Shown piece by piece: positions 1-21,516 of a DNA stretch of 38,540 bases. Positions within the stretch are counted from its first letter, which is position 1. Each line of letters starts with the position of its first letter. The notes under the pieces are model-generated. The model was not told where the DNA came from. It ran no database searches and saw nothing but the letters and a program-made list of their open reading frames with translations. This DNA is from Candidatus Omnitrophota bacterium (lineage in GTDB: Bacteria > Margulisbacteria > WOR-1 > XYC2-FULL-46-14 > WPAF01). The position numbers and the translations under genes are program-made. The stretch is taken from contig DATJPS010000017.1 in NCBI GenBank assembly GCA_035506255.1, forward strand, positions 1 to 38,540, in the 5' to 3' direction.

Positions 1-646
1 GGTATATCTCTTCAAGCGTCCCGAATTGTTTCAACAGTTCGATCGCGGTCTTTTCCCCGACTTTAGGAACGCCGGGAATATTATCGGAAGTATCGCCTTT
101 TAACGCTTTGAAGTCGATCAACTGCGAAGGTTTAAGCCCGTCGTACCGTTCCTCCACCTCTTTTTCCCCGTAAAGGACGGTGTCGGTGATCCCTTTCCGG
201 GTGGTCAGCACTTTGATATTGTCGTCCACCAGCTGCAGTGGGTCGAGATCGCCGCTGATGATGGTCACTTTATATCCTTCTTTTTCCGCTTCGCGGGCGA
301 GCGTACCGATCACGTCGTCGGCCTCGAACCCCGCTAACTCGAAGACCGGGATGCTGAGCGCTTCGGCGATCTCTTTGACGTATGGCATCTGTTCGTGGAG
401 AGTGGGGGGCGCTTTATCGCGGGTCGCTTTGTATTCTTTGTATTCTTTATGGCGAAAGGTCGGCTCCGGCCGGTCGAACGCGATCGCCACGAAATCCGGA
501 CCGTCCTCCAGCGTCTTGAGTAGCATGGTGGTGAAGCCATATATCGCATTCGATGTGATCCCGGTGGAGGTCCGCATGGTGTCAGGAAGGGCGTAGAACG
601 CCCGGTAGGCGAGAGAGTTGCCGTCGATAAGATAGGCTTTCGGCAT
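1..646 (-). CDS. polA: DNA polymerase I, N-terminal 5'-3' exonuclease (FEN-like) domain; the gene's 3' part runs off the window
   Basis: Absent from the ORF track because the window edge truncates it. My translation of the minus strand from ATG 646..644 gives MPKAYLIDGNSLAYRAFYALPDTMRTSTGITSNAIYGFTTMLLKTLEDGPDFVAIAFDRPEPTFRHKEYKEYKATRDKAPPTLHEQMPYVKEIAEALSIPVFELAGFEADDVIGTLAREAEKEGYKVTIISGDLDPLQLVDD...LKGDTSDNIPGVPKVGEKTAIELLKQFGTLEEIY. These are classic Pol I 5'-nuclease motifs. Confidence 0.85.
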   Translation of the reverse strand, partial: MPKAYLIDGNSLAYRAFYALPDTMRTSTGITSNAIYGFTTMLLKTLEDGPDFVAIAFDRPEPTFRHKEYKEYKATRDKAPPTLHEQMPYVKEIAEALSIPVFELAGFEADDVIGTLAREAEKEGYKVTIISGDLDPLQLVDDNIKVLTTRKGITDTVLYGEKEVEERYDGLKPSQLIDFKALKGDTSDNIPGVPKVGEKTAIELLKQFGTLEEIY

Positions 647-652
647 GGGATA

Positions 653-661
653 AATATAGCA
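653..661 (-). promoter_or_regulatory. Candidate extended -10 promoter (TGCTATATT on the minus strand), 6 nt upstream of the polA ATG
   Basis: The minus strand reads TGC TATATT TATCCC ATG. There is no Shine-Dalgarno sequence in the 6-nt spacer. Confidence 0.4.
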
Positions 662-745
662 TAAAAACGGCGGGATTGACGGTTCGAAATCCGTTGAAAT
701 GCAAGGAATTAATTTAAAATCACGAAAATCTAGATAAAAAACGGG

Positions 746-753
746 TGTATAAT
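746..753 (+). promoter_or_regulatory. Candidate -10 promoter (TGTATAAT) for fibre paralogue 1
   Basis: TGTATAAT lies about 25 nt upstream of the ATG at 779 and is followed by the GGAGG ribosome-binding site at 768-772. Confidence 0.45.
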
Positions 754-778
754 TTTTCGGAAGCAAGCGGAGGTGAAA

Positions 779-2554
779 ATGCGAAAATTATTTATTGTTG
801 CCATTGTTCTGACCGCATTTATCCCATCCCTGGCCAGTGCCGCCAATATCCAATTGATCCTCGATTCAATTGATGGAAGCTCGGCGATGACCGTACTGAA
901 CGGGAATACGCAGGAAGTGGCAAGGATCGATTCTTTGGGCAGGATCGGGATCGGTAAAACTCCGAGTTGGTCTCTGGACATCAACTCAACTTTAACGATA
1001 GGGGTAAATTCAAGCACCAACGCTATCGGCGGCGTCGGGGTCTATGGCACCGCGTCTTCGACCGGCGGTTCGTCCAATACCGGTGTATTCGGTTCGGCGG
1101 CATCGAATATGGGCGGTTCGGCCGGCGTTTACGGCCAAGCTACCGGATCGACGGCGCAGGTTTATGGCGTTTACGGATACGCGACCGGTGCCCAGGGCCG
1201 AGGGGTCTATGGCGCACAGCCGAATAGCGGTTATGGTGGTTATTTCATGAATTCGGGCAGTGGTTATGGCGGCTATTTTTCCAACACCAGCAGCGGAGTC
1301 GGTCTTTATGCGACTTCGACTTCGGGATACGCCGCGATATTCAATAACGGTAACGTTGGGATCGGTCTGGCCAATCCTGCCGTCACTTTCGAGGTGGGCG
1401 CGAATCATGCGCTGTCGGTGAACGCGGGCTCCGGCAATATTGGCGTTGGCACTACTGCACCGGAATTTAAACTGAGCTTAGCGTCCGACGGCGGGATCCT
1501 GGCCAAGGGGATCGTTGGAGATATCGGGAACGATACGCAAGGAACTTCACTTTCGACTTCGGGCTCCGGGGTCAGGATGATCTGGTATCCGAGGAAAGCG
1601 GCGTTCCGCGCCGGATACGTGGACGGCAGCCAATGGGACAACGCGAACGTCGGCAAGTACTCGGTCGCTCTGGGACATAATTCTCAAGCTACTTTGGAGA
1701 GCGGCATCGCTCTCGGTGTCGCGTCGAGGGCCGGTTATTGTGGCGTGGCGACCGGAGTGCTTTCGGTGGCGGGGAATATGTCGACCGCTCTTGGCTGGCA
1801 ATCTACGGCGAACGGGATGGCATCCACCGCCACGGGGATTTTGACGGCGGCGACCGGGGATTATTCCGCTGCTTTCGGTTGGTCCACCACGGCCAGCAAT
1901 CAATGCTCAGTCACCATGGGGAACAACATCACTAACAATTATGCCAACGCGCTGATGATCGGCGATAATACGCAGGATATCCTTTTAAATCCTGACGGGA
2001 ACAGCTGGCTTCAGTGCCGGCTGGGCTATTTGGGCGTCGGGACCACCGCTCCGACCGACATGCTCACCGTGGCCGGCAATGTGGTCCCGGCCTCGGATGC
2101 GATAAATACATGCGGAAAATCCGGTAAGCGATGGTACCAGATCTGGGCTTCGACCGGGACCATCCAGACCTCGGACGATCGGATCAAGGCGGGCCAAAAA
2201 GATCTGGGCAAGGGGTTGGCAGATATCGAAAAGTTAAAGCCGAAGGAATATTTCCTCCGGAACGCCGAAATGACAGGGAAGGGGATCTCGTTCAAACCGG
2301 GAGGAAAAAAGGATATCGGGCTGATCGCCCAGGAGCTGTACAAGGTGATTCCGGAGGCGGTGTACAAACCGTCCGACGAAGCGAAAGAGCTTTGGGGAAT
2401 AAATTATGAAAAGCTGATACCGGTCATGATAAAAGCGATCCAGGAAGAGCAAAAGACGGTCGCCGGGCTGCAGAAAAAAGTGGACGACCTGGCGGCGGAC
2501 AAACAAACCCTCGAATCCCGGATAAAGGCACTGGAGGCCGGCGGGCGGAAATAA
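779..2554 (+). CDS. Secreted mosaic fibre paralogue 1: signal peptide, shared N-module, Gly/Tyr-rich shaft, YadA/Hep_Hag-like head repeats, C-terminal peptidase-S74 intramolecular chaperone domain
   Basis: The track ORF is 773..2554, but I prefer the ATG at 779, which sits 6 nt after GGAGG. Signal peptide: MRKLFIVAIVLTAFIPSLASA. N-module: ANIQLILDSIDGSSAMTVLNGNTQEVARIDSLGRIGIG. Head-like region: RMIWYPRKAAFRAGYVDGSQWDNANVGKYSVALGHNSQATLESGIALG...STALGWQSTANGMASTATG. The C-terminus has SDDRIK...GLIAQELYKVIPEAV...YEKLIPVMIKAIQEEQ followed by a coiled coil. Confidence 0.85.
   Translation: MRKLFIVAIVLTAFIPSLASAANIQLILDSIDGSSAMTVLNGNTQEVARIDSLGRIGIGKTPSWSLDINSTLTIGVNSSTNAIGGVGVYGTASSTGGSSNTGVFGSAASNMGGSAGVYGQATGSTAQVYGVYGYATGAQGRGVYGAQPNSGYGGYFMNSGSGYGGYFSNTSSGVGLYATSTSGYAAIFNNGNVGIGLANPAVTFEVGANHALSVNAGSGNIGVGTTAPEFKLSLASDGGILAKGIVGDIGNDTQGTSLSTSGSGVRMIWYPRKAAFRAGYVDGSQWDNANVGKYSVALGHNSQATLESGIALGVASRAGYCGVATGVLSVAGNMSTALGWQSTANGMASTATGILTAATGDYSAAFGWSTTASNQCSVTMGNNITNNYANALMIGDNTQDILLNPDGNSWLQCRLGYLGVGTTAPTDMLTVAGNVVPASDAINTCGKSGKRWYQIWASTGTIQTSDDRIKAGQKDLGKGLADIEKLKPKEYFLRNAEMTGKGISFKPGGKKDIGLIAQELYKVIPEAVYKPSDEAKELWGINYEKLIPVMIKAIQEEQKTVAGLQKKVDDLAADKQTLESRIKALEAGGRK
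2171..2551 (+). other. Peptidase S74 (endosialidase-type intramolecular chaperone, autoproteolytic) domain of paralogue 1
   Basis: The motif S-D-D-R-I-K has Ser and Lys five residues apart, as in the Ser/Lys dyad of tail-spike C-terminal chaperone domains. It is followed by IGLIAQEL, INYEKLIPVMIKAIQE and a terminal coiled coil. Confidence 0.75.
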
Positions 2555-2576
2555 CCCGATATATTCAGATTAAAAA

Positions 2577-2585
2577 TGATATAAT
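2577..2585 (+). promoter_or_regulatory. Extended -10 promoter TGATATAAT for fibre paralogue 2
   Basis: An exact TGnTATAAT lies 31 nt upstream of the ATG at 2616. The same 10-mer, ATGATATAAT, precedes paralogues 3 and 4. Confidence 0.5.
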
Positions 2586-2609
2586 CCTCCGAAATCGACC
2601 GTTCGGAGG
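2586..2609 (+). promoter_or_regulatory. Perfect 8-bp hairpin pairing an anti-SD (CCUCCGAA) with the paralogue-2 Shine-Dalgarno (UUCGGAGG)
   Basis: cctccgaa (2586-2593), loop atcgaccg, ttcggagg (2602-2609). The start codon is at 2616. Confidence 0.35.
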
Positions 2610-2615
2610 GCATTA

Positions 2616-4655
2616 ATGAAAAGATATATCGCACTGGTCGCGTGTTTGTCGCTTTTTATTGTTTCTCACCCGATCCTTGCCGCCGATGTCAATGTCATTC
2701 TCGATAATTCCCCAGGTTCGCTGGTGATCAAGGATTCTTCGCGAAATACGGTCGCTTCTGTCGATTCCACCGGCATCGGGGATTTCTATTTACTTCACAA
2801 CCGGGCGACCGATTTCAGGCTGAGCGATAATACGCACGGCCGCGGCGATCCCGGGGCGGGGAGGGCGCTGGTGCATGCTCCGGGCAACCAGTTGACGCTC
2901 AATTATGCCGGCGACTTTACCGGAGGGACCAATATTTATGGCAGTCCGGTCTTTATCCCCAATAACGTCGGTATCGGCTCGACTAATCCGATAAGCAAGC
3001 TGGAACTTTCCGGGTCCGGAGGCGATACCGGGGTCGCGATCCGGTTCGATGAAACCTCGAACCGCCAGTGGGCCCTATATCCGAACGGAGGCATTTTCCG
3101 AATTAAGGACTTGAACGCGGGGAGTGATTATCTTACCGTTCAGGGCGGAACGGGGAACATAGGGATCGGGACGACCAATCCGCTATCGAAGATAAGCGTC
3201 AACGACAATGGCGCCGCCAATTATGGTATCTATAGTTTAGGTTCTTCTACCGGGGTCTGTGGTGTCAGTAATTCCGGTTACGGGGTATGGGGATGGTCCA
3301 GTTCCGGATTAGGGATCTACGGCTCCTCCTCTTCGGGTTTCGCCGGTTATTTTAACGGTAACAGCTATTTTAGCGGAAATGTTGGCATAGGGACGACTGC
3401 CCCGAGAGGTAAATTGGATATCTCGACCGGCGGAATGAACTCGTATATTGAATGCGGCGCCGGAAGCGTTTATTTGGGGGATTACAGTAATGTGGCGAAC
3501 AACGTATACCAGCAAATAAATGGCGACGATCCAAATTCGGGCTTTGTGTTCAAGAATGGGACGGTTCAGATCTTGAATGGAAATGTCGGCATTGGGACGA
3601 CCAATCCGGGAGCACTTCTAGAGGTGGTGGGGAACATTAAGCTCGGGTTCAATGCGCTTGGCCGGACCATACAAGGGGCCGATTCCTCCGGCTCCGGGAC
3701 CCCGCTGATCATCAGATCGGGCAGTAACACGGGAGGAAGTTATCCTGCCGGCAATCTTAGCCTGGAAGCCGGGACCAGCACTTCCGGCGGTACTTATAAC
3801 GGGAGCATACTTTTTTCGACGGCTGGAACGGAAAGGATGCGGGTCAATCGTAACGGCAATATCGGGATCGGTACCACCAATCCTTTATCTCCCCTGCATA
3901 TTTATACTTCGAATGGCGATGCCTACGCCGGACTGGTGATCCAGAAGAACGGGGCCAAGACGCTTTCAATAAACCAGGGATCGTCGAACAAGTTGAACTT
4001 TACCGAACCGGGAGTGGTCGACCTGATGACGGTCGATTTCAGCGGCCTGAGGGTAGGGATCGGCAACGCTTCCCCTTCGAGCGGCAAGTTGCAGGTCACG
4101 ACAAGTTCCGGCACGGCGATCTACGGTTCCGGTGGTGGGTTCGGGGCGGAATTGTACGGGTCGAGCACCGGGGTTTATGCTAACGGCGATACTGGTGTTA
4201 ATGCGTATGGCGCGACCTATGCCGGATATTTCCAGGGGAAATTATACGTGTCTACTCTCTCTTCCAACGGAACGGTCTATTCGAACGGGAGCATCCTGAC
4301 CAACACCAACCCGTCATCCATCAGGTATAAAAAGGATGTCAAAGACCTGCCGATCGAGACGGATAATATCCTGAAGCTGAGGCCGGTCTCATTCATCTGG
4401 AAGAACAATGGCCAGAAGGACGTCGGTCTGATCGCGGAGGAAGTGGCAAAACAGGTCAAGGACCTGACCGCCCTTAATTCGGCAGGATCGATCGAAGGGG
4501 TCAAGTATGACAAACTGCCGGTATATTTGCTGGGAGTGATCAAACAACAGCAGAAGCAGATAAATGATCAAAGCGGCGAGATTAAACAGATAAAAGCCGA
4601 AAATCAGGACCTGCAGTCACGCCTGAAGGCGCTGGAAGTCAGGCTCGCCAAATAG
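2616..4655 (+). CDS. Secreted mosaic fibre paralogue 2: signal peptide, repeated NVGIGTTNP..LE[LV] collar motifs, 64-aa shared module, Gly/Tyr-rich segments, C-terminal peptidase-S74 chaperone domain
   Basis: Signal peptide: MKRYIALVACLSLFIVSHPILA. N-module: ADVNVILDNSPGSLVIKDSSRNTVASVDSTG. There are at least six GN[VI]GIGTT[NA]P repeats. The C-terminus has SSIRYKKDVKDL...VGLIAEEV...VKYDKLPVYLLGVIKQQQ followed by a coiled coil. Confidence 0.85.
   Translation: MKRYIALVACLSLFIVSHPILAADVNVILDNSPGSLVIKDSSRNTVASVDSTGIGDFYLLHNRATDFRLSDNTHGRGDPGAGRALVHAPGNQLTLNYAGDFTGGTNIYGSPVFIPNNVGIGSTNPISKLELSGSGGDTGVAIRFDETSNRQWALYPNGGIFRIKDLNAGSDYLTVQGGTGNIGIGTTNPLSKISVNDNGAANYGIYSLGSSTGVCGVSNSGYGVWGWSSSGLGIYGSSSSGFAGYFNGNSYFSGNVGIGTTAPRGKLDISTGGMNSYIECGAGSVYLGDYSNVANNVYQQINGDDPNSGFVFKNGTVQILNGNVGIGTTNPGALLEVVGNIKLGFNALGRTIQGADSSGSGTPLIIRSGSNTGGSYPAGNLSLEAGTSTSGGTYNGSILFSTAGTERMRVNRNGNIGIGTTNPLSPLHIYTSNGDAYAGLVIQKNGAKTLSINQGSSNKLNFTEPGVVDLMTVDFSGLRVGIGNASPSSGKLQVTTSSGTAIYGSGGGFGAELYGSSTGVYANGDTGVNAYGATYAGYFQGKLYVSTLSSNGTVYSNGSILTNTNPSSIRYKKDVKDLPIETDNILKLRPVSFIWKNNGQKDVGLIAEEVAKQVKDLTALNSAGSIEGVKYDKLPVYLLGVIKQQQKQINDQSGEIKQIKAENQDLQSRLKALEVRLAK
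3000..3191 (+). repeat. Copy in paralogue 2 of the 192-bp / 64-aa shaft module (LELSGxGGDTGVAIRFDETxNRQWALYPNGGxFRIKDLNAGSDYLxxxGGTGxxGIGTTNP)
   Basis: The protein and nucleotide sequences align visibly with the tandem pair at 5140..5523 in paralogue 3. Confidence 0.8.
4314..4652 (+). other. Peptidase S74 intramolecular chaperone domain of paralogue 2
   Basis: S-S-I-R-Y-K has the Ser/Lys spacing of the autocleavage dyad. It is followed by LKLRPVSFIWK, VGLIAEEV, YDKLPVYLLGVIKQQQ and a coiled coil. Confidence 0.75.
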
Positions 4656-4678
4656 TTCGTTCGAATGTTTCTTTCTGA

Positions 4679-4687
4679 TGATATAAT
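4679..4687 (+). promoter_or_regulatory. Extended -10 promoter TGATATAAT for fibre paralogue 3
   Basis: An exact TGnTATAAT lies 36 nt upstream of the TTG start at 4723. The GGAGGG ribosome-binding site is at 4710-4715. Confidence 0.5.
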
Positions 4688-4722
4688 TCCATGAAAGAGG
4701 ATCGGCAACGGAGGGATCGATA

Positions 4723-6336
4723 TTGAACAGAAAATTTCTTGCGGCTATTGGCATGCTAACCGTGATGTTGTCCATTGTTTATGCGGCGGATGTGAACGTT
4801 GGCCTTGACAGTAAGAACGGGTCTTCCGCGCTGAACATCAAAAATTCGGATGCCAACATTATCGCGACGATCAAATCCTCCGGGTCGCTGGAAGCCGGGT
4901 GGACCGCCAAGGCGTACGGTAAATACATACTTTCCGGTGTCTCCGATCAGGGTGATGGCCTGGTCGCGGACGACACTTTTGAAAGGGTGTTCGGGTTGAC
5001 CCGGAACACCAACAATGAGATCCGCCTGCTCGGTTTTGGACCATTGACTTTTTGGAACGGTAGCGCCACCGGCACCGAAAAAATGAGGATCAAGACAAAT
5101 GGCAACGTAGGTATTGGAAATACGGATCCTGCCTGTCGCCTGGAGCTTTCGGGTGCCGGTGCGGACACGGGGGTCGCGATCAGGTTCGATGAAACGGCGA
5201 ACCGTCAATGGGCGTTGTACCCGAACGGTGGCACTTTCAGGATAAAGGATCTTAACGCCGGGAGTGATTATTTGTCGATCAAGGGAGGGACCGGCTATGT
5301 CGGCATCGGGACGACTAACCCGGTGAGCGTGCTTGAACTTTCCGGTGCCGGTGGTGATACCGGGGTTGCGGTAAGGTTCGATGAAACGGCCAACCGTCAA
5401 TGGGCGCTGTACCCGACCGGCGGCACTTTCAGGATAAAGGATCTTAACGCCGGGAGTGATTATGTGTCGGTCATGGGAGGGACCGGTTGGGTCGGTATCG
5501 GGACGACCAACCCGATCGATGTTATGCATATTTCAGACTCCAACGCGAACATAGTGTACGGAACAAGTGAAGTAATAAACAACGACGCCAAGATCGGGAG
5601 GGCCGGAGGCAACAACTATCATATCACCGGGACATTGGCCGGAGATCTTGCCATCCGTCCGGAATCGACGAAAAAGATAGTGTTTGGCACCGCTTCGACG
5701 TCCGGCAGTACCGCAACGGCCAGAATGGTCATAAGCAAGGATGGCAACATTGGGGTCGGCACTACCGCTCCCGCCTCGGTCCTTGATGTCAACGGCGACA
5801 TTAAGCTTGCCGCTACGTCAGCGCCGACAGGTGCGGCGGGGAAGATCTATTTCGATTCTACCACTAGCCGTCTTAATTACCACGATGGCTCCAAGTGGAT
5901 AGAAGTGGACCCTATGTATACCACTAAACCGACAAAATCCCTTAACACCAGCGGTTTTAGCGGAGACATTTCCAGTACAAACACTTATACTGCCAACATT
6001 GGCTCCGTGCTTGCGAACAATTCCATTATAACGACGATCATAGGGCGTTTCCATGTCTCCTGCTCGAACACGGTCAGGAACCTTTACTTTGAACTACTTG
6101 ACGGGAGTAATAATGTGCTGGTCAGCTTCATTTGCCCGAACAGTACCTATATGAGCGATTATTCCGGCCTCTCGTTTTGCGTGCCTTGGGGATTCACCTA
6201 TCAATTGCCCATTCCCGTTTATGTAGCCAGTGGTAACCAGATCAAGATCCGAATATCCCAATACGGAACAACGTACGGAGCTGCTACTGGTATTTGTACC
6301 GGAGCCACCGTGAATTATATCGAACTTCCGCTGTAA
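4723..6336 (+). CDS. Secreted mosaic fibre paralogue 3: signal peptide, N-module, two tandem 64-aa shaft modules, conserved neck, divergent C-terminal tip ending YIELPL
   Basis: TTG start 7 nt after GGAGGG. Signal peptide: MNRKFLAAIGMLTVMLSIVYA. N-module: ADVNVGLDSKNGSSALNIKNSD. Neck: VLDVNGDIKLAATSAPTGAAGKIYFDSTTSRLNYHDGSKWIEVDPMY. The tip ends ...YQLPIPVYVASGNQIKIRISQYG...VNYIELPL. Confidence 0.85.
   Translation: MNRKFLAAIGMLTVMLSIVYAADVNVGLDSKNGSSALNIKNSDANIIATIKSSGSLEAGWTAKAYGKYILSGVSDQGDGLVADDTFERVFGLTRNTNNEIRLLGFGPLTFWNGSATGTEKMRIKTNGNVGIGNTDPACRLELSGAGADTGVAIRFDETANRQWALYPNGGTFRIKDLNAGSDYLSIKGGTGYVGIGTTNPVSVLELSGAGGDTGVAVRFDETANRQWALYPTGGTFRIKDLNAGSDYVSVMGGTGWVGIGTTNPIDVMHISDSNANIVYGTSEVINNDAKIGRAGGNNYHITGTLAGDLAIRPESTKKIVFGTASTSGSTATARMVISKDGNIGVGTTAPASVLDVNGDIKLAATSAPTGAAGKIYFDSTTSRLNYHDGSKWIEVDPMYTTKPTKSLNTSGFSGDISSTNTYTANIGSVLANNSIITTIIGRFHVSCSNTVRNLYFELLDGSNNVLVSFICPNSTYMSDYSGLSFCVPWGFTYQLPIPVYVASGNQIKIRISQYGTTYGAATGICTGATVNYIELPL
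5140..5523 (+). repeat. Tandem duplication (2 x 192 bp, 2 x 64 aa) inside paralogue 3
   Basis: Unit 1 is 5140..5331 and unit 2 is 5332..5523. The peptides are nearly identical: LELSGAGADTGVAIRFDETANRQWALYPNGGTFRIKDLNAGSDYLSIKGGTGYVGIGTTNPVSV and LELSGAGGDTGVAVRFDETANRQWALYPTGGTFRIKDLNAGSDYVSVMGGTGWVGIGTTNPIDV. Confidence 0.9.
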
Positions 6337-6456
6337 AGGATCCCGGCGAACACTACCGTCGGCGTCAGGCTGACGCAGGTGGGCGCTTCCATCTATATGC
6401 TGGCCTATCTCTATATTGACCGTTTTTCGTTGCAATATATAGAATTGCCGCTCTAA
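6337..6456 (+). pseudogene. Orphan 3' cassette: 39 codons plus stop encoding the last strands of an LPL-type tip (…IPANTTVGVRLTQVGASIYMLAYLYIDRFSLQYIELPL*), in frame directly behind the paralogue-3 stop codon
   Basis: My translation of 6337..6453 gives RIPANTTVGVRLTQVGASIYMLAYLYIDRFSLQYIELPL, followed by TAA at 6454-6456. It matches the family pattern [LF]PIP..V..G..I...I......Y[IM][EA]LPL seen at the ends of paralogues 3, 4 and 5. It has no start codon or ribosome-binding site of its own. Confidence 0.65.
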
Positions 6457-6470
6457 ACGCCATTTTTCTA

Positions 6471-6479
6471 TGATATAAT
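6471..6479 (+). promoter_or_regulatory. Extended -10 promoter TGATATAAT for fibre paralogues 4-5
   Basis: An exact TGnTATAAT lies 30 nt upstream of the ATG at 6509. The GGGAGA ribosome-binding site lies just before the start. Confidence 0.5.
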
Positions 6480-6508
6480 TGCGCCAAGATTTTTCCTGGG
6501 AGAATGAA

Positions 6509-7219
6509 ATGAAAAAATTCGCGTTGGCTATCATACTGGTCATCCTTGCCGCCGTATCCGCTTTCTCTGCTAATTTAAAGATGATCCTAGATTCGAACGA
6601 TGGCAGCTCCGCGTTCCTGGTACAGGACAACACCTCCAGGGAAGTCGCGAGGATAAACTCGCTGGGAAATGTGGGCATTGGCACTTCGTTGCCGGTATCG
6701 ACGCTGGAAGTGAACGGCGATATTAAGCTGGCATCGATGTCGGCCCCCTCCGCCGCACCGGGCAAGGTCTATTTCGATTCTACCTCCAGCCGATTGAATT
6801 ACCATGACGGGACCAAATGGATAGAGGTCGACCCTGCCTATAGCACAAGAGAAGTAAAAGATTATGTTATCCAGGCTCTATATACTGGGGCCGGGCCTAC
6901 GGCTTACGATATTGCCACGCCCGCAAGAGATATCGTAATTACGGAGATGTCGATGTTGACGAGCGTTGGCGACATATGGATCAACAACAGCACAACCATC
7001 GAAGCGACTCTCTATGTGGGTGGGGTAAGGAAGGCTTATTTGAATTATTATTTCCAGTACAATACTTACATGGATCCGATCAAAGGTCCGCCTCCGCTGG
7101 TCTTTCCTATACCGATCAAGGTCAGTGCGGGGACCGATATCTCGATGACGATCTTAGGGTCGCATACACATAATAGGGCAGATGAGTTCCGTCTCAAATA
7201 TATGGAACTGCCGTTGTGA
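6509..7219 (+). CDS. Secreted fibre paralogue 4 (minimal form): signal peptide, N-module, neck and LPL-type tip with no shaft modules
   Basis: The track ORF starts at 6479, but I prefer the ATG at 6509 (MKKFALAIILVILAAVSAFSA). N-module: NLKMILDSNDGSSAFLVQDNTSREVARINSLGNVGIGTSLPVSTLEVNG. It runs straight into the neck DIKLASMSAPSAAPGKVYFDSTSSRLNYHDGTKWIEVDPAY. The tip ends FPIPIKVSAGTDISMTILG...LKYMELPL. Confidence 0.85.
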   Translation: MKKFALAIILVILAAVSAFSANLKMILDSNDGSSAFLVQDNTSREVARINSLGNVGIGTSLPVSTLEVNGDIKLASMSAPSAAPGKVYFDSTSSRLNYHDGTKWIEVDPAYSTREVKDYVIQALYTGAGPTAYDIATPARDIVITEMSMLTSVGDIWINNSTTIEATLYVGGVRKAYLNYYFQYNTYMDPIKGPPPLVFPIPIKVSAGTDISMTILGSHTHNRADEFRLKYMELPL

Positions 7220-7239
7220 TCCGATAGGGAGGGCATAAC

Positions 7240-8676
7240 ATGAAAAAATATGTTTTGATCGTTGTGCTGATCGGTTTAGCCTCTGCCTCCGCTTTTTCCG
7301 CCAACGTAAAGATGATATTGGATTCTTCGGACGGCAGTTCTGCGCTATCGATCCAGGATAAGACCTCAAAGGAAGTGGCAAGGGTTGATTCTTCTGGCAG
7401 AGTGGGGATTGGGACGACTGCTCCGTTATATGGTCTTGATGTCAGTACGACCCTGACGCGGGGGATCAATTCGGTCTCAAACGCTTACGGCGGCTACGGC
7501 GTTTATGGCACAGCCTCAGATACTTCGGCAGTAGGGCCGAATTACGGAGTCTACGGGTCCGCGGCGGCCAATTTTAACGGATCGGCCGGCGTGTACGGCG
7601 TTGCCACCGGTTCCCCGAGCCAGGTCTACGGTGTTTACGGTTCGGCGGGCGGTCTCAGCGGCCGCGGGGTATTCGGTACGGAATCGGGCGGCGGTTACGG
7701 CGGTTATTTTTTAAACTCCAGCAGCGGCGTAGGGTTGTATGCTGCTTCCACTTCGGGCTATGCCGCGGTCTTCCCCTCGGGCAATGTCGGTGTAGGGACG
7801 GCGAGCCCTAGCAACCTGCTTACCCTGCAGGGATCCGCGACCCCTCAGCTGATGATCACCCAGCCATCGGCAACCGATGCCCTGACCCTGGGTTACAATG
7901 AGGCGTCTTACGCTTATATGGCCACCCTTGGCTCGCATCCGCTGGCACTGTTCACGAACAATCTAGAACGGCTGCGCGTAACCTCGGCCGGCAATGTGGG
8001 TATCGGAACGACCGGACCAGGAGAAAAGCTGGAGATCGTCGGGAACGCAAAGATCACTTCCCTGTCCACTTCGTCTAATGTGACGATGAGCAACGCGATC
8101 ACCGCGGCCGGGAACTACGGACTTTCCGTAATAATAGACGGAGTGGAGCGGGGGAGCGTCGACCGGTTGGGGAACGGTTATCTTTCGAACACGCTCACGC
8201 TCGCATCGGTTGCGGCACCGACCGCCGCCACCGGCAAGATCTATTTCGATTCGACCGTCCATCGGCTTAAATATTACGACAGCACCAAATGGATCGAGAT
8301 GGACCCGGCCTATACCAATAATTCACTTCAATCGACACCGATGTATTCCGTTTCGGGGACCAATACCGCCAACATGAGCATGCTCACTCCAGGTACTGAT
8401 ATAATAATAACCGGGATCGCCGGCAACACTGACTGGTTGACCAACCAGTGCCCGGAATACCTGATCGAACTTTATAACGGGAGCACGAGCTATGTCAGCA
8501 TTTATGTGCCGGATGACCGGGGCGATTACGAATATTCTCTACCGATACCGGTGAGGGTCCCGTCCGGTACCGCGATCTCGGCCAGGATCACCGCCAAAGA
8601 TTACACCGGCGCGAACTATCTCGGGACCTACGCCACGCTGCGCTGCACGATGCGATATATAGCTCTGCCTTTATAA
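7240..8676 (+). CDS. Secreted mosaic fibre paralogue 5: signal peptide, N-module, Gly/Tyr-rich shaft (as in paralogue 1), collar repeats, neck and LPL-type tip
   Basis: GGGAGGG ribosome-binding site, 20-nt gap after paralogue 4. Signal peptide: MKKYVLIVVLIGLASASAFSA. N-module: NVKMILDSSDGSSALSIQDKTSKEVARVDSSGRVGIGTTAP. Shaft: GVYGTASD...GVYGSAAANFNGSAGVYGVATGSPSQVYGVYGS...GYGGYFLNSSSGVGLYAASTSGYAAVF. Neck: GKIYFDSTVHRLKYYDSTKWIEMDPAY. The tip ends LPIPVRVPSGTAISARIT...MRYIALPL. Confidence 0.85.
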   Translation: MKKYVLIVVLIGLASASAFSANVKMILDSSDGSSALSIQDKTSKEVARVDSSGRVGIGTTAPLYGLDVSTTLTRGINSVSNAYGGYGVYGTASDTSAVGPNYGVYGSAAANFNGSAGVYGVATGSPSQVYGVYGSAGGLSGRGVFGTESGGGYGGYFLNSSSGVGLYAASTSGYAAVFPSGNVGVGTASPSNLLTLQGSATPQLMITQPSATDALTLGYNEASYAYMATLGSHPLALFTNNLERLRVTSAGNVGIGTTGPGEKLEIVGNAKITSLSTSSNVTMSNAITAAGNYGLSVIIDGVERGSVDRLGNGYLSNTLTLASVAAPTAATGKIYFDSTVHRLKYYDSTKWIEMDPAYTNNSLQSTPMYSVSGTNTANMSMLTPGTDIIITGIAGNTDWLTNQCPEYLIELYNGSTSYVSIYVPDDRGDYEYSLPIPVRVPSGTAISARITAKDYTGANYLGTYATLRCTMRYIALPL

Positions 8677-8689
8677 TTGAATTAAATAA

Positions 8690-8720
8690 AAAGGGGAAAG
8701 GATAAAATCCTTTCCCCTTT
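8690..8720. terminator. Bidirectional intrinsic terminator between the convergent fibre array and tsf
   Basis: A 13-bp perfect stem, aaaggggaaagga (8690-8702) paired with tcctttccccttt (8708-8720), with loop taaaa. There is a T-rich run on the tsf side and A/T-rich flanks on both sides. Confidence 0.7.
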
Positions 8721-8741
8721 AACCAAATAAGAGGCTGCTAT

Positions 8742-9344
8742 TTAAGACTTTTCGCCCAGCTGATATCTGATGAACCGCCGCACCACGATGTTCTCGCCGA
8801 TCTTGGCGGCCAGCCCGCCCAGCAGATCTTTTATCTTGATCTTCGGGTCGCGGATAAAAGGCTGTTCCATCAGGCAGACCTCTTCGTAGAATTTCTGCAC
8901 TCTACCGTCGATTATCTTTTCCCGTGCCTTTTCGGGTTTGCCTTCCGCTTTTGCCTGCTCGCCGATCAGATCTTTTTCGTGCTGCAGCACCCCTTCGGGC
9001 ACTTCGTCAACAAAAATATAGGCCGGGTTTTGCGCGGCGATCTGCATGGCCACGTCCTTGCCGAACTGAAGAAAATCCTCGTTGCGCGCCACGAAATCGG
9101 TCTCGCAATTCACCTCGAGCAGAACTCCGATCTTGCCTCCGGTGTGTACATAGGATACGACCGAACCCTGGGCGGCGGTGCGCTCGGCGCGTTTGCCTAC
9201 CGCGGCCAAACCTTTTTTACGCAGGGCATCGACCGCCAGGTCCATGTCGCCGCCGGCCTCGGCCAGCGCTTTCTTACAGTCCATCATGCCGCAGCCGGTC
9301 TTTTCGCGCAGTTTTACGATGTTCTCGGTGGTTACTTCCGCCAT
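8742..9344 (-). CDS. tsf: Translation elongation factor Ts (short, 200-aa form)
   Basis: MAEVTTENIVKLREKTGCGMMDCKKALAEAGGDMDLAVDALRKKG (UBA-like N-terminus), then GKIGVLLEVNCETDFVARNEDF. The start overlaps the rpsB stop (TAATG). Confidence 0.95.
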   Translation of the reverse strand: MAEVTTENIVKLREKTGCGMMDCKKALAEAGGDMDLAVDALRKKGLAAVGKRAERTAAQGSVVSYVHTGGKIGVLLEVNCETDFVARNEDFLQFGKDVAMQIAAQNPAYIFVDEVPEGVLQHEKDLIGEQAKAEGKPEKAREKIIDGRVQKFYEEVCLMEQPFIRDPKIKIKDLLGGLAAKIGENIVVRRFIRYQLGEKS

Positions 9345-10186
9345 TAGAACCCGATCCTTTCTTCTTCTTCCTCGACTACCGGCACCTTGGGGGCCAGTGA
9401 GGCCAGGCGTTCCTCTTCGGATATCGCCATCGCTTCTTCCATCGTCTCTTCGCCCACTTCGATCGGGACCGCGATCTCGGGCGCGCGCTCTTCGATCGGT
9501 TTGGTCAGCTCGCGGCCCGCGATCACCGCTTCGGCGATGATGGAGGTCAAGAGCTTGATCGAGCGGATGGCGTCATCGTTGGCCGGGATCGGGAACTCGA
9601 CTTCGTCCGGATCGCAGTTGGTGTCGACCACGGCGATGATCGGGATCCCCATCTTCTTCGCTTCCAGTATGGCGGTGGTCTCCTTCTTGCTGTCGACGAT
9701 GTAAATAGCGGCGGGGAGGGAGAGCATTTCACGGATACCGCCCAGGCCGCGGACCAGTTTGGCGTGTTCGCGCCTCAAGTTAGCCACTTCCTTGGCTGGG
9801 AGCTTCTCGAACATGCCGTTCTTTTCCAGCTTTTCGATCTCGTTAAGCCGTGCGATTGTCTTCTTTAGCGTCTTGAAGTTTGTGAGGGTCCCGCCCAGCC
9901 AGCGGTCGTTTACGTAGAACATGCCGCAGCGCTTGGCCTCTTCCATTACCGCGTCCTGCGCCTGCTTCTTCGTGCCGACGAAAAGGACGGTGCCGTTCTG
10001 CGCCACCGCGTTCTTTACGTAGTCGAAGGCCTTTTCGATCAGCGGGATGGTCTTATGAAGGTCGATCACGTGGATGTTGTTCCGCGACGAGTAGATATAC
10101 TTGCTCATCTTGGGGTTCCATCTTTTGCTCTGGTGGCCGAAGTGGACCCCGGCCTCGAGCAGTTCTTTCATAGTTACTACCGGCAT
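9344..10186 (-). CDS. rpsB: 30S ribosomal protein S2 with an acidic C-terminal extension
   Basis: MPVVTMKELLEAGVHFGHQSKRWNPKMSKYIYSSRNNIHVIDL...VLFVGTKKQAQ...NDRWLGGTLTNF...IIAVVDTNCDPD. The ribosome-binding site AAGGAGG lies upstream. Confidence 0.95.
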   Translation of the reverse strand: MPVVTMKELLEAGVHFGHQSKRWNPKMSKYIYSSRNNIHVIDLHKTIPLIEKAFDYVKNAVAQNGTVLFVGTKKQAQDAVMEEAKRCGMFYVNDRWLGGTLTNFKTLKKTIARLNEIEKLEKNGMFEKLPAKEVANLRREHAKLVRGLGGIREMLSLPAAIYIVDSKKETTAILEAKKMGIPIIAVVDTNCDPDEVEFPIPANDDAIRSIKLLTSIIAEAVIAGRELTKPIEERAPEIAVPIEVGEETMEEAMAISEEERLASLAPKVPVVEEEEERIGF

Positions 10187-18685: not shown

Positions 18686-19822
18686 TCAATCGCCCAGCGC
18701 GCGGACGACGGCCGCGATCACCCGTTCCTGATCTTTTTCCATCCCCGGCCAGAGGGGGAGGCGGACCAGGGAGCCGCTGATCCGGTCGGTGTTCGACAGG
18801 TCGCCGCTGACGCAGCCGAATTTTTTCCCCGCCGGGGAACTATGGAGCGGCACATAGTGGAATGTCGCTTCGATCCCGTCATCCCGCAGCCGGCCGATGA
18901 GTGCTCTCCTTTCTTCCGGTCCGGAAAGGATGAGGTAGTAAATATGGCCGTTGGTCGTGCAATCGATGGGGAGTGACGGGCGCAGCGCTTTATTGCTTTT
19001 TTCCAGTTGCGAAAACGCCTGCTGGTATTCCCGCCAGAGCGATACCCGGCGCGCGGTCGTCTCGTCGGCTGCTTCGAATTGCGCCAGCAGCAGCGCCGCG
19101 GTGAGCTCGTTCATGAGGTACGACGAGCCGATATCGATCCAGGTGTATTTGTCCACTTCCCCTTTAAGATAACGCACCCGGTCGGTCCCTTTCTCTCTCA
19201 GTATTTCGGCTCGCGCGATGAAGCGCGGATCGTTGATCAGCAACGCCCCGCCTTCCCCCGACATGAGATTCTTGGTCTCGTGAAAGCTCAGCGCGGCCAG
19301 ATGTCCAATGCTGCCGGCCGGTCGGCGCTTGTAATGGGAAAGCACGCTTTGCGCGGTGTCCTCGATCACCAGCAGGCCGTGTTTTTCGGCCAGCTCCATG
19401 ATCGTGTCCATTTCGCACGGTATCCCGGCATAATGGAGCGGGACGATCGCCCTGGTCCGTCCGGTGATCGCAGCTTCGATCTTCGATCCATCAAGGTTGC
19501 AGGTGTCGGGGCGGATATCGACGAAGACGGGCACGCCGCCCCTGAGCACGAATGCGTTGGCAGTGGAGGGATAGGCGAACGATGGCATGATGACCTCGTC
19601 GCCAGGCCGGATATCGGCGAGCAGGGCCGCCATTTCCAGCGCAGCGGACCCGGAAGGGGTAAGCAGCGCTTTGCGGCATTCGATCCTCTCCTCCAGCCAG
19701 GCGGAACATTTTTTCGAGAAACAGCCGTCGCCGGAAAGATGTCCCTGCTCCAGGCTTTCTTTTATATAAGCCAGGGCCTTTTCAGGAATGTACGGATTAT
19801 TAAAGGGTATCATGACCGCCAT
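18686..19822 (-). CDS. DegT/WecE-type PLP-dependent NDP-4-keto-6-deoxyhexose aminotransferase
   Basis: FSKKCSAWLEE, LLTPSGSAALEMA, VIEDTAQS and SFHETKNLMSGEGGALLIND (the PLP-lysine motif typical of WecE-like enzymes). Confidence 0.85.
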   Translation of the reverse strand: MAVMIPFNNPYIPEKALAYIKESLEQGHLSGDGCFSKKCSAWLEERIECRKALLTPSGSAALEMAALLADIRPGDEVIMPSFAYPSTANAFVLRGGVPVFVDIRPDTCNLDGSKIEAAITGRTRAIVPLHYAGIPCEMDTIMELAEKHGLLVIEDTAQSVLSHYKRRPAGSIGHLAALSFHETKNLMSGEGGALLINDPRFIARAEILREKGTDRVRYLKGEVDKYTWIDIGSSYLMNELTAALLLAQFEAADETTARRVSLWREYQQAFSQLEKSNKALRPSLPIDCTTNGHIYYLILSGPEERRALIGRLRDDGIEATFHYVPLHSSPAGKKFGCVSGDLSNTDRISGSLVRLPLWPGMEKDQERVIAAVVRALGD

Positions 19823-21516
19823 CAGCGGCCCGGCCCGGCGCGCCTGACGGCCGGGCGATTTACGGATAATAGATATTTCCCTTTATCGTAACTGGCTATG
19901 ACTTTGAACCTCGGTTTGGGCAAGTGGTGTTCGGCAAAATACCTATAAAAGATTGGAATGAATTGATCACGTGACAACATAAAAAGATGTTTATCACTAT
20001 TTATAGCGGAGAGTAGGCTGGTCTGGTGGAACCGTGAAAGCGTTTCCGCGTTCAAGGGACTGTTAATTAGATGGTCGATGAAAAGCAAATGCAGACCGCG
20101 GTATTCGTTGAGATCGGAAAAGGGAGGAGTGCGTCCGATCGGCAGAACGGATCCCCTCATCAGGATAAGGTCATCCGCGCCGCGCGGAAGGCCGGCCAGT
20201 ATTTTGTAATAATATATTTGGTCGGTCCGGTTGGTGCGACTCTGGCTGGCAGCTGAAAAGACCTGCGCGCCCAGCAGGCAGGTTAAAAGCGCAACCACAA
20301 TCACGACAAGATATTTATTTTGAGGCGACGGCTTTTCTGCCGTGGCGCTGACGGATTCGACCAATGACGTCAGGCTTAAGAACAATAATACAGGGAGAAA
20401 GACCCGGTCGGGCAGTCGGGCGGTGTGCGAAAGCCAGATGCAGATGAGTACGGCCGTCAGGGCTTGCGCGCAGATGAGGCCGCGGCGTTCTTTCCCGATG
20501 CCCATTGCTAAAAATATCAGGTATACCAATGTTGCGATGATGGGGGGCAGGTTGGCCTTTAACGGTTCCTTCAGGGTCTTTATCGTGTCGGACAGGTTTC
20601 TCCAGTTGTGCGCGTTCTTTTCCACGTAAGTGATCTTTTCAATAGAATAAACGGTCTGGTCAAAATTGAACCCGTGCGCGAAGATGCGCTCGTCGTTCTT
20701 GCTCCATCCGACATGATCGAAGACCGGACGGTTCCTTTCGTTGTAGTCCAGTTTGGGATAGCCGTGCAGTTTGTCCCGTATAATCTGATACTGATGGTAT
20801 TTTGCCCACTGCGGGTCCTTCATGTAGTAGGCATCATCAAAGCATGCCAGGGCGGTCAACAGAACCGCGGACAGGAGCACGAAAACGACGGCCTGCCGCC
20901 GGCTTTTACCGATCATCAGGGTCAGCAGGACGGGCGCGGCAAGGAAAGCCAGCAGGTAGACGGAATCGATGCGGATGAGCCCGCCCCCCGCGACCAGCGC
21001 GGAAGCAATAACAAGATAAGCTGCGGCTTTTCCGCCCCGAGAATCGAGCGTGGTGATAAAAAGGCAGAATCCGCCGAGCGCCAGCGCAGAGGCGGCGGAG
21101 GTGAACTGCAGGCGCATCAGCAGCGGCATTTCGAAAATAATGAACAGCCCCAGATAATGGAAGACGGCCGGCCAGTCGGGTTTCCGCCTGATGATGGAAC
21201 ACAGGATCACGGTCATGGCGATAAAATGGGCCAGGTAAAGATAGATCGGGTACCAGCGGATGTTGCTTGCATGCAGGTAGAGGAACTTGAGCGCCAGCCC
21301 GACAATGACATTTGAATAAATAACATATTCACTTGGGGTTCCGGTCGTAACGCCAGATGCGGTGAGCAACATGATCGCATCGTCAACGGTGTCGAAGCAG
21401 GGAGTGAAGAACAGGAAAAACATCCCGAAGATGATGGCGTTGATGGCCAATGAAATAAAGAGTGCGCGGGTCCATGTCATTTTGTTGTTTGCCAATCCCA
21501 TTATGATGCCCATCAT
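19822..21516 (-). CDS. Large polytopic membrane protein with a C-terminal soluble domain; possible GT-C-fold glycosyltransferase
   Basis: About 10 hydrophobic helices in the first 340 aa or so. There is an acidic DTVDDAIM motif just after TM1, where GT-C enzymes carry their catalytic acidic motif. ATGA overlap with the aminotransferase gene. No family was recognised by eye. Confidence 0.4.
   Translation of the reverse strand: MMGIIMGLANNKMTWTRALFISLAINAIIFGMFFLFFTPCFDTVDDAIMLLTASGVTTGTPSEYVIYSNVIVGLALKFLYLHASNIRWYPIYLYLAHFIAMTVILCSIIRRKPDWPAVFHYLGLFIIFEMPLLMRLQFTSAASALALGGFCLFITTLDSRGGKAAAYLVIASALVAGGGLIRIDSVYLLAFLAAPVLLTLMIGKSRRQAVVFVLLSAVLLTALACFDDAYYMKDPQWAKYHQYQIIRDKLHGYPKLDYNERNRPVFDHVGWSKNDERIFAHGFNFDQTVYSIEKITYVEKNAHNWRNLSDTIKTLKEPLKANLPPIIATLVYLIFLAMGIGKERRGLICAQALTAVLICIWLSHTARLPDRVFLPVLLFLSLTSLVESVSATAEKPSPQNKYLVVIVVALLTCLLGAQVFSAASQSRTNRTDQIYYYKILAGLPRGADDLILMRGSVLPIGRTPPFSDLNEYRGLHLLFIDHLINSPLNAETLSRFHQTSLLSAINSDKHLFMLSRDQFIPIFYRYFAEHHLPKPRFKVIASYDKGKYLLSVNRPAVRRAGPGR

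Follow-up and report, generated by a model that had tools for sequence, protein, structure and literature searches.

A chromosomal array of probable mosaic trimeric fibre adhesins between polA and tsf in a genome labelled Candidatus Omnitrophota

The window analysed here is an entire contig of 38,540 bp (DATJPS010000017.1) from a metagenome-assembled genome (MAG), and our subject is a tandem array at 773-8676, i.e., five open reading frames (ORFs) on the + strand, F1 to F5, which encode 593, 679, 537, 236 and 478 aa. The most probable reading is that this chromosomal locus is hypervariable and encodes an array of secreted adhesins, trimeric fibres of the MAT (mosaic adhesive trimer) type, i.e., cellular proteins that are built from phage tail-fibre modules. 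An initial annotation, made from the sequence letters, had reported five same-strand genes between polA and tsf-rpsB, all of which are present, and had read them as a repertoire of surface adhesion fibres; this interpretation is supported in silico. Membership in the MAT class is solid on grounds of architecture and of sequence homology of the shaft, while the correspondence of the N-terminal domains and a MAT-like function are putative. The array is a further MAT-like example and not a new class; the kind of protein and its presence in Omnitrophica were noted earlier in the sections of Caulton et al. 2024 (PMC10769870, Nat Microbiol) on which we draw throughout. New are the hypervariable tandem arrays, the family of short N-terminal modules, a rare C-terminal tip (tip B) and a putative tip-swap scar at 6337-6456.

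Architecture of the five proteins and their relation to MAT fibres

We compared the proteins with known structures by sequence (phmmer against the PDB). The shafts of F2, F3 and F5 match four crystal structures of Bdellovibrio bacteriovorus MAT fibres, i.e., 8OND (Bd2133), 8OML, 8ON4 and 8OJN, with E-values from 1.8e-9 to 1e-3; 8OL4/8ONF (Bd2439) are further MAT structures. F3 reaches 1.8e-9 with 8OND (residues 71-223) and 4.5e-8 with 8OML and also matches 8ON4 and 8OJN, F2 matches 8OND at 1.7e-7, and F5 matches 8OND at 9.6e-5 as well as 8OJN. The predicted structure of F5 likewise has 8OND as its top Foldseek match in the PDB (E 7e-6), followed by Chlamydia Pgp3, the lambda gpJ receptor-binding domain and viral jelly rolls. 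Thus, the resemblance to chimeric fibres of predatory bacteria that the initial annotation had suggested is a detectable relationship. The PDB matches of F1 are YadA (1P9H, 1.4e-6), the Hep_Hag head 3S6L and, weakly, the long-tail-fibre distal subunit 6F45.

Signal peptides had been claimed for each fibre and are predicted in all five by a heuristic that combines hydrophobicity with the residues at -3/-1. The same heuristic finds signal peptides of the Sec/SPI (signal peptidase I) type in 19/19 family members examined (the five window proteins and 14 relatives), and none of the 19 shows a lipobox Cys at +1. In the window, they have a K/R n-region, a 12-aa hydrophobic core (mean Kyte-Doolittle 2.4-3.4) and a small residue at -1, mostly also at -3.

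The shared module of about 40 aa that was described behind the signal peptide, in the following N-module A, is close to its consensus in F1, F4 and F5, while F2 and F3 match its first half only ('A[DN]V.V.LD[SN]..GS'). The shared start is real, but this constant N-terminal module is a copy of the generic fibre repeat unit and not a separate kind of domain. That is, the hidden Markov model (HMM) of the N-module matches internal '...ER.RIDSSGNVGIGTT.P' repeats in metagenomic fibre proteins that a search with F5 had returned as well as IMG/VR tail fibres of cyanophage-like type, and the four best PDB matches of the profile, all weak, are internal repeats of MAT structures. Some long proteins contain the whole module repeatedly, up to seven times. 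N-module A is predicted to form 3-4 short beta-strands, and by analogy it may have a docking role.

Behind this start, each module type proposed by the initial annotation was recovered (coordinates in Table 1). GN[VI]GIG collar repeats are present in all five proteins, where the motif G[NY..][VI]G[IV]G occurs in 3-4 copies each in F1, F2, F3 and F5 and once in F4, whose single collar is that of N-module A itself (GNVGIG, residue 53). The 64-aa module corresponds to a 192-nt repeat with 71-75% nucleotide identity, of which F2 has one copy and F3 a tandem pair, and Gly/aromatic-rich GVYG tracts are found in F1, F2 and F5. Residues ~165-280 of F5 form a succession of collar, beta-helix unit and collar, which is the stretch most widely common to other fibres. 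F1 further contains the Pfam family YadA_head (32.2 bits, cut-off 25). A weak RicinB_lectin_2 match in F3 (28.2 bits, barely over the cut-off) is read as spurious because it coincides with the 64-aa unit, i.e., with sequence that can be aligned to the beta-helix of Bd2133.

Two alternative C-termini had been noticed, and both are found. F1 and F2 end in an S74 chaperone (Pfam Peptidase_S74, PF13884; 37.3 and 36.2 bits, cut-off 22). Their matches begin exactly at S467-DDRI-K472 and S567-SIRY-K572, i.e., the Ser of each pair takes profile position 1, and the Ser/Lys dyads (S467/K472 in SDDRIK, S567/K572 in SSIRYK) are thus intact; the predicted autocleavage residue Ser467 of F1 is encoded by codon 2171-2173. 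F3, F4 and F5 share the second C-terminus, tip B, which consists of a neck motif GK[IV]YFDS....L.Y.D..KW (GKIYFDSTTSRLNYHDGSKW in F3) and ~130 residues ending in Y[IM].LPL. Tip B is rare: F4 has 12 matches among 5.8 billion proteins, and an alignment scan of genome contigs, in which its spread is poorly sampled, found a full tip B in only one other species-level genome, bin-4880. Partial neck-motif matches in the same scan came from MAGs of Saccharibacteria and Bacteroidota. We also observed the neck motif (L..SAP....GKIYFDS...RLNYHDG..W) as common to fibre-like genes of these Saccharibacteria (L009-L011) and Bacteroidota (L012-L013) MAGs and to 18 IMG/VR contigs (L014-L031). The 18 viral matches lack the tip-B body, as none goes past F4 residue 124. 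This distribution suggests that the neck is a portable element joining shafts to tips.

AlphaFold2 models were computed for monomers of F4 and F5 only (mean predicted local distance difference test, pLDDT, 62.9 and 64.9). In both, tip B is an all-beta sandwich (pLDDT 70-92 for F5) while the shafts are poorly defined (below 50), which would be the expected outcome for chains that wind around each other in a trimer. Given monomeric models of moderate confidence, it is from sequence similarity that we take the shaft to have a fibre fold. The F4 model matches the gpJ receptor-binding domain, the BC2L-C TNF-like lectin 2WQ4 (TM 0.54), 4-1BBL, the Sf6 knob and the Bd2439 MAT tip. The predicted tip B is an approximately eight-stranded beta-sandwich like the TNF-like and jelly-roll heads of the Burkholderia BC2L-C N-terminal lectin (2WQ4), the Pgp3 C-terminal domain, the Sf6 needle knob and the gpJ receptor-binding domain, with target-normalised TM-scores of 0.43-0.54 at a sequence identity of only 7-16% and for moderate-confidence models. 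2WQ4 is also given as best match of the Bd2734 tip in the sections of PMC10769870 used here. In BFVD, 319 matches are found at E<=0.001, and the top matches listed are mostly phage tail-fibre-like.

Paralogues, relatives and diversification of the slot

The five-gene array of the initial annotation is confirmed but forms only a part of a family with at least 16 members in the same MAG, distributed as 5 + 9 + 2 over three loci that all lie amid housekeeping genes. The second locus, known from identical genes on ENA contigs, has the order dprA, six tandem fibres, a radical-SAM gene, three fibres, hypA and hydrogenase genes. Its fibres carry signal peptides in 9/9 cases, N-module A in five and an alternative N-module B in four, and they end in tip B (eight) or in a third kind of tip (one). 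The third locus adjoins a copper ATPase and holds two N-module-A fibres, including HTY12844.1 with YadA_head and S74. Of the 12 tip-B matches, two (VMD02_05655 and VMD02_05700) belong to the MAG of the window and lie on a 33-kb contig. No phage genes were found around the loci examined besides the window, including the corresponding slot of bin-4880. The radical-SAM gene within the nine-gene array encodes a BATS-domain protein (biotin synthase / ThiH-like; L003 14645-16033).

N-module B (~85 aa, SVRTGTIVAAPVTVGDSTNTFPTAYEDEINGGYK...) starts four fibre genes on the second contig of the MAG. It takes the place of N-module A in front of an unchanged type of tip, tip B, so that the fibres of this genome have a choice of two starts as well as of different tips. 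We note that N-module B is highly conserved (SVRTGTIVAAPVTVGDSTNTFPTAYEDEINGGYKVVSDEATMNSIPASRRVVGMLCYVS.EATTFRLN), has no Pfam match and is paired with tip B (L003 8207-11973, L005 1590-2663).

The GTDB representative 'AlinenSediments_bin-4880' (bin-4880) has the same slot, i.e., polA, fibres and tsf-rpsB-yggS-sepF-proC-yggT-pfkB, and fills it with four fibre genes (B1-B4; 593, 563, 495 and 480 aa) compared to five in the window. Flanking orthologues are 83-94% identical in 5/6 cases, while the fibres show 35-71% (Table 1). F1 is chimeric with respect to bin-4880, with similarity to B3/B4 in the N-terminus and GVYG tract, to B2 (which carries YadA_head) in the YadA region and to B1 in the S74 region. 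F4 has no counterpart in the bin-4880 slot; at 47%, the nearest relative of its tip is a single fibre encoded elsewhere in bin-4880. Phage genes on the polA side had been named as a check on the initial annotation; in bin-4880, i.e., in a relative's slot, the five genes upstream of polA (amidohydrolase, PNP/UDP phosphorylase, lgt, lspA, DUF5665 protein) include none. As a side observation, F2 residues 23-125 (2682-2990) and B1 (L008 3996-4300) share an N-region of ~105 aa, which includes GRGDPGAGRALVHAPGNQLTLNYAGDFTGGTNIYGSPVFIP, holds an RGD tripeptide and is nearer in length to the ~130-aa N-domain of Bdellovibrio MATs.

A further trace of change lies directly behind the F3 stop, where 39 in-frame codons (RIPANTTVGVRLTQVGASIYMLAYLYIDRFSLQYIELPL and a stop) form a relic of a tip-B 3' end. 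By blastp-short, it aligns to the extreme C-terminus in 16/17 tip-B proteins of our test set (the 17th match is internal), e.g., with 1.4e-4 for B4 and with near-full-length alignments to S2 and F5. None of the other intergenic gaps checked holds a similar relic. We read it as the probable scar of a cassette or tip replacement, or of gene decay.

We conclude from these comparisons that diversification is fast and recombinational. It appears to proceed by ordinary duplication and recombination without a dedicated mutagenic system, because neither a reverse transcriptase nor near-identical or inverted repeats were found. That is, no ORF scanned contains a reverse transcriptase domain, the direct repeats in 600-8800 are paralogous modules only (60-78% identity), near-identical repeat pairs were not found, and intergenic DNA yielded no inverted repeats resembling invertible elements. 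Accordingly, we rejected a diversity-generating retroelement (no reverse transcriptase, no template/variable repeat pair), an invertible promoter or phase variation (no near-identical repeat pairs, no meaningful intergenic inverted repeats) and recent gene conversion between paralogues (common modules only 60-78% identical in DNA). Hypervariable regions of Omnitrophota have been reported to often include or abut genes of ribosomal proteins and elongation factors, a study that leaves undecided whether they are mobile elements or population-variable surface cassettes (bioRxiv 10.64898/2026.06.07.730766). The fibre slot between polA and tsf (646-8742) might be an example of the latter.

Beyond these two genomes, an exhaustive search with a profile of signal peptide plus N-module yielded 544 clusters (50% identity level, E<=1e-3). 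The N-module is located at the extreme N-terminus behind a signal peptide in 115/144 newly listed top matches, and family members range from 73 to 1,976 aa with highly diverse C-termini; the constant start with an exchangeable end is thus a real property of a large family. Among 80 members, Pfam assigns the tips S74 (17), YadA_head (10), Phage Tail Collar (2), Gp10_C (2), Peptidase_G2 (2), K1-lyase_C (1) and FGE-sulfatase (1), and we count at least eight tip types by Pfam for the family. Named members are HTY12844.1, MBF0523236.1 and MBF0504326.1 (Omnitrophota/Omnitrophica), MEI6782944.1 (Verrucomicrobiota) and OGC33194.1 (WOR-1). In other MAGs, N-module proteins adjoin mreD/PBP2, radA/clp genes or glycosyltransferases, where the radA/clp example is itself an array of at least three fibre genes with a partial fourth ORF adjoining. 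The combination of signal peptide and N-module was not found in IMG/VR viral contigs. Metagenome contig scans with the patterns [FS][AS][AD][ND][LVI][KQ][ML]ILD and [KQ][ML]ILDSxDGS gave no confirmed locus, and a homologue search with a 58-column N-module profile returned one irrelevant fragment only.

Known fibres, rival explanations and a possible mechanism

According to the sections of PMC10769870 used here, MAT fibres are displayed on the predator surface and comprise a signal peptide, a conserved beta-rich N-domain of ~130 aa and intertwined trimeric beta-helices. B. bacteriovorus has 21 MAT genes, of which 13 have S74 tips and eight non-S74 tips (beta-sandwich, TNF-like, C-type lectin). 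Supplementary Table S3 lists MATs of other predators, including an FGE tip in Bdellovibrio sp. ArHS, and already includes an Omnitrophica (OP3) MAT (A0A2H0LB00, 713 aa, S74-like). Like these, the window fibres begin with a signal peptide and a conserved module, whose correspondence to the MAT N-domain is putative. Their shafts consist of ER.RID.SGNVGIGT..P collar / beta-helix units as in MATs (phmmer, Foldseek), S74 and non-S74 subfamilies exist in both, with a jelly-roll/TNF-like non-S74 tip, and many paralogues occur per genome (at least 16 compared to 21) in non-phage context. The window fibres differ in size (236-679 aa vs ~1,000 aa), in the second, alternative N-module B of this genome and in the N-module, which is ~40 aa long and shaft-repeat-like here while the Bdellovibrio N-domain has ~130 aa, a comparison made by description only. 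Moreover, the fibres of this genome form tandem arrays of 2-6 in hypervariable slots, of which the sections used of PMC10769870 contain no mention for MATs that we found; the tip-B sequence family is rare as well.

The modules that are shared with phages raise the question of whether the genes are prophage remnants or encode fibres by which a tailocin or contractile injection system, located elsewhere in the genome, binds its receptor. The likeness is considerable: F1 and F2 end in the S74 Ser/Lys dyad of phage fibres (K1F endosialidase 3GW6 and T5 4UW8, as cited in the sections used of PMC10769870), collar repeats are present, all five proteins match PHROG tail-fibre families, the listed top BFVD matches point the same way, and tail fibres from IMG/VR contain both neck motif and repeat unit. 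In contrast to phage fibres, however, every member examined carries a Sec signal peptide, and the N-terminus is not a virion-attachment domain. Virion, tailocin and injection-system fibres are generally put together in the cytoplasm and would have no Sec signal peptide. In addition, no virion genes adjoin: neither the 38.5 kb nor the three other loci examined hold any other phage gene, the chromosomal slot is stable between genomes with mostly 83-94% identical flanks, and the combination of signal peptide and N-module was not found in IMG/VR viral contigs. We thus consider this origin very improbable. Even less credit can be given to F1 being a trimeric autotransporter adhesin (YadA/Hep_Hag) and the array a set of type Vc autotransporters. 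The left-handed beta-roll repeats of YadA_head in F1, B2 and 10/80 family members, together with the F1 matches to 1P9H and 3S6L, speak for it, but a C-terminal YadA anchor barrel is detected in none of the five (Pfam, E<=1), C-termini are S74 or other tips, with S74 and a coiled coil in F1, and NCBIfam YadA_autotrans scores 29.8 against a cut-off of 750. Without that barrel we assume no type Vc secretion; type Vc membership is refuted by the missing anchor, and the YadA head repeats represent a borrowed module.

Of more weight, though still rather unlikely in our judgement, is that the proteins are exported but not cell-anchored, i.e., released lectins or glycan-active proteins, or parts of an S-layer- or sheath-like coat, which would serve substrate capture, attachment to biofilms or particles, or polysaccharide processing instead of cell recognition. 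The fibres have signal peptides but no recognisable anchor (no lipobox, beta-barrel, sortase or SLH motif), K1-lyase_C, FGE-sulfatase or Peptidase_G2 domains form the C-terminus of relatives that share the N-module, and tip B is similar to trimeric lectins that are soluble and to Chlamydia Pgp3, which is secreted. Furthermore, an SLH-domain protein is encoded at 37439-38506, for which reason a surface layer may exist. On the other hand, the strict conservation of the N-module across hundreds of otherwise unrelated fibres points to a common attachment or handling step, and recognition of variable targets fits at least 16 fast-diversifying tips better than a structural coat does. The closest characterised relatives, the Bdellovibrio MATs, are moreover displayed on the cell surface in the account of PMC10769870 used here.

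Several observations weigh against a surface-displayed array of MAT-type adhesins, which we nevertheless prefer. The N-module of ~40 aa is homologous to internal shaft repeats and contrasts with the N-domain of ~130 aa common to Bdellovibrio MATs, the structure models are monomeric and of moderate confidence (mean pLDDT 63-65, shafts below 50), and surface exposure of the window fibres is inferred. Enzyme-like tips (K1 lyase, FGE) in other N-module family members imply that some members may be enzymes and not adhesins. The organism is a diderm that bears lipopolysaccharide (LPS; lptB/F/G and lnt in the window), such that a periplasmic trimer still needs a way through the outer membrane, and the array is not linked to any gene dedicated to secretion or anchoring. 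Finally, 'Omnitrophota' is the depositor's phylum label.

For a MAT-type adhesin array, we propose the following mechanism. The Sec machinery would export each precursor, and signal peptidase I would cut it, as suggested by the signal peptide sequences. Three chains may then fold starting at the C-terminus. In F1 and F2, the S74 domain, present with its dyad, would act as intramolecular chaperone that nucleates the trimer and cuts itself off at Ser467/Ser567, judging by the activity of its family; in F3-F5, the jelly-roll (TNF-like) tip B might serve both as trimerisation nucleus and as ligand-binding head. Collar motifs (GNVGIGTTxPxxxLEV), 64-aa units and GVYG tracts, which are homologous to Bd2133, would form an intertwined beta-helix/prism shaft of the putative trimer. 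The first ~40 mature residues, i.e., N-module A, are presumably producer-proximal and would hold the fibre on the cell; anchoring is suggested by the strictly N-terminal position in hundreds of proteins and by the MAT analogy. For the MATs themselves, the authors state that it is still to be identified which element of the surface the N-terminal domain binds (sections used of PMC10769870). The variable tips may bind surface glycans or proteins of other cells, i.e., of hosts or prey of possibly episymbiotic or predatory Omnitrophota, or other substrates. Comparison with the related genome and the tip-B relic show that the repertoire changes through gene duplication, shuffling of modules and exchange of tips among paralogues.

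A more far-reaching version is, in our view, possible at best. Here, the arrays would be host-range cassettes of ultra-small host-dependent Omnitrophota, and signal peptide plus N-module A would constitute a display system for phage-derived fibres across PVC (Planctomycetes, Verrucomicrobia, Chlamydiae) and WOR-1 that is distinct from the Bdellovibrio N-domain, with its own route of outer-membrane export and anchoring, and with tips swapped in situ (scar 6337-6456) to track host surfaces.

Genomic context and significance

Features of the array and its flanks are collected in Table 1.

Table 1. Features of the fibre array and its flanks (window positions), with amino-acid identity to the bin-4880 counterpart
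Feature	Position	Strand	Details	Identity
polA, N-terminal 5'-3' exonuclease part	2-646	-	Pfam 5_3_exonuc_N 1.3e-58; truncated by contig end	87% (N-terminal part)
F1	773-2554	+	593 aa from GTG 773; HTY12712.1 = 591 aa from ATG 779; also collar motifs	
F1 signal peptide	773-841	+		
F1 N-module A	842-961	+		
F1 GVYG tract	1031-1315	+	Gly/aromatic-rich	
F1 YadA-head-like region	~1535-2074	+		
F1 Peptidase_S74 chaperone + coiled coil	2171-2551	+		
F2	2616-4655	+	679 aa; HTY12713.1	36-42%, two separate pieces (B1)
F2 signal peptide	2616-2681	+		
F2 N-module A	2682-2783	+	divergent	
F2 64-aa beta-helix unit	3000-3182	+	one unit	
F2 GVYG tracts	3225-3395, 4083-4196	+		
F2 Peptidase_S74 + coiled coil	4314-4652	+		
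F3	4723-6336	+	537 aa; TTG start; HTY12714.1	35% (B3)
F3 signal peptide	4723-4785	+		
F3 N-module A	4786-4899	+	divergent	
F3 64-aa units	5140-5322, 5332-5514	+	tandem	
F3 neck motif + jelly-roll tip B	5788-6333	+		
Tip-B 3'-end relic	6337-6456	+	39 codons	
Promoter-like hexamers	6416-6478	+	TTGACC-18-TAGAAT, TTGCCG-18-TATGAT; consensus match only; 172-bp F3-F4 gap	
F4	6509-7219	+	236 aa; HTY12715.1; minimal member	
F4 signal peptide	6509-6568	+		
F4 N-module A	6569-6688	+		
F4 neck + tip B	6710-7216	+		
F5	7240-8676	+	478 aa; HTY12716.1	71% (B4); sole full-length fibre orthologue
F5 signal peptide	7240-7299	+		
F5 N-module A	7300-7419	+		
F5 GVYG tracts	7489-7749	+		
F5 neck + tip B	8182-8673	+		
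Palindromic hairpin	8690-8720	.	perfect 14-bp stem; between convergent F5 and tsf	
tsf	8742-9344	-	right flank	83%
rpsB	9344-10186	-	right flank	94%
yggS				68%
proC				83%
pfkB				86%

F4 more likely starts at ATG 6509, which has the ribosome-binding site GGGAGA, than at 6479. The hairpin 8690-8720 is likely a bidirectional terminator that ends the array and is shared by F5 and tsf, and the hexamers at 6416-6478 may provide a second transcription start for F4-F5; counts from the promoter/terminator scan are not significantly above those of shuffles, except for this hairpin. The NCBI records HTY12712.1-HTY12716.1 ('MAG TPA: Candidatus Omnitrophota bacterium'; locus tags VMD02_00840-00850 for F3-F5) annotate two of the fibres as 'tail fiber domain-containing protein' and three as 'hypothetical'.

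Past rpsB follow yggS, sepF, proC, pfkB, an aldolase, relA/spoT, sugar-modification genes and trpD, and farther along the contig lptB/lptFG, lnt, amj, ribF, pnp, an SLT transglycosylase, comEA/comEC and the SLH-domain protein. The housekeeping, non-phage context that the initial annotation had noted holds for the whole 38.5 kb, i.e., Pfam and PHROGs searches over ~30 ORFs found no phage structural, integration or lysis gene (capsid, tail, terminase, integrase, lysis) in the window besides the fibres. The sole PHROG 'tail' look-alike outside the array is the SLT transglycosylase adjoining comEA/comEC. Neither tRNA genes nor Rfam families were found in the window, and a structured RNA or tRNA integration site at the locus was rejected for this reason.

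Among the envelope genes, we observed the SLH-domain protein (37439-38506, -), a DUF3084 protein (23925-25403, +) and Amj, an alternative lipid II flippase (30140-30961, +), alongside the lpt genes. Such a set is commoner in Cyanobacteria-type or 'Terrabacteria' diderms than in PVC bacteria. Three further ORFs amid the LPS and envelope genes, all on the - strand, have no Pfam/PHROG match (19822-21516, 564 aa; 27157-27804, 215 aa; 27782-30073, 763 aa), except for a weak LptC-like N-terminus in the 763-aa ORF.

The Omnitrophota are mostly uncultured and proposed to be predators or parasites (PMC10066038). So far, discussion of how they recognise partners has centred on Tad and type IV pili and on giant proteins; two genomics papers on the phylum treat these, and term searches of their text gave no mention of fibres like the present ones. 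The conceptual gain over Caulton et al. 2024 is modest. What the genome adds are at least 16 MAT-like fibres with fast-evolving tips, i.e., concrete candidate host-recognition molecules for a possibly predatory phylum, and the N-module profile provides a simple signature for cataloguing secreted fibres (~540 clusters). If the arrays are indeed host-range cassettes, their tips would be usable as probes for Omnitrophota hosts. Expression looks feasible because the proteins are small (the shortest has 236 aa), and tagged tips could stain environmental cells or glycan arrays and thereby reveal the hosts.

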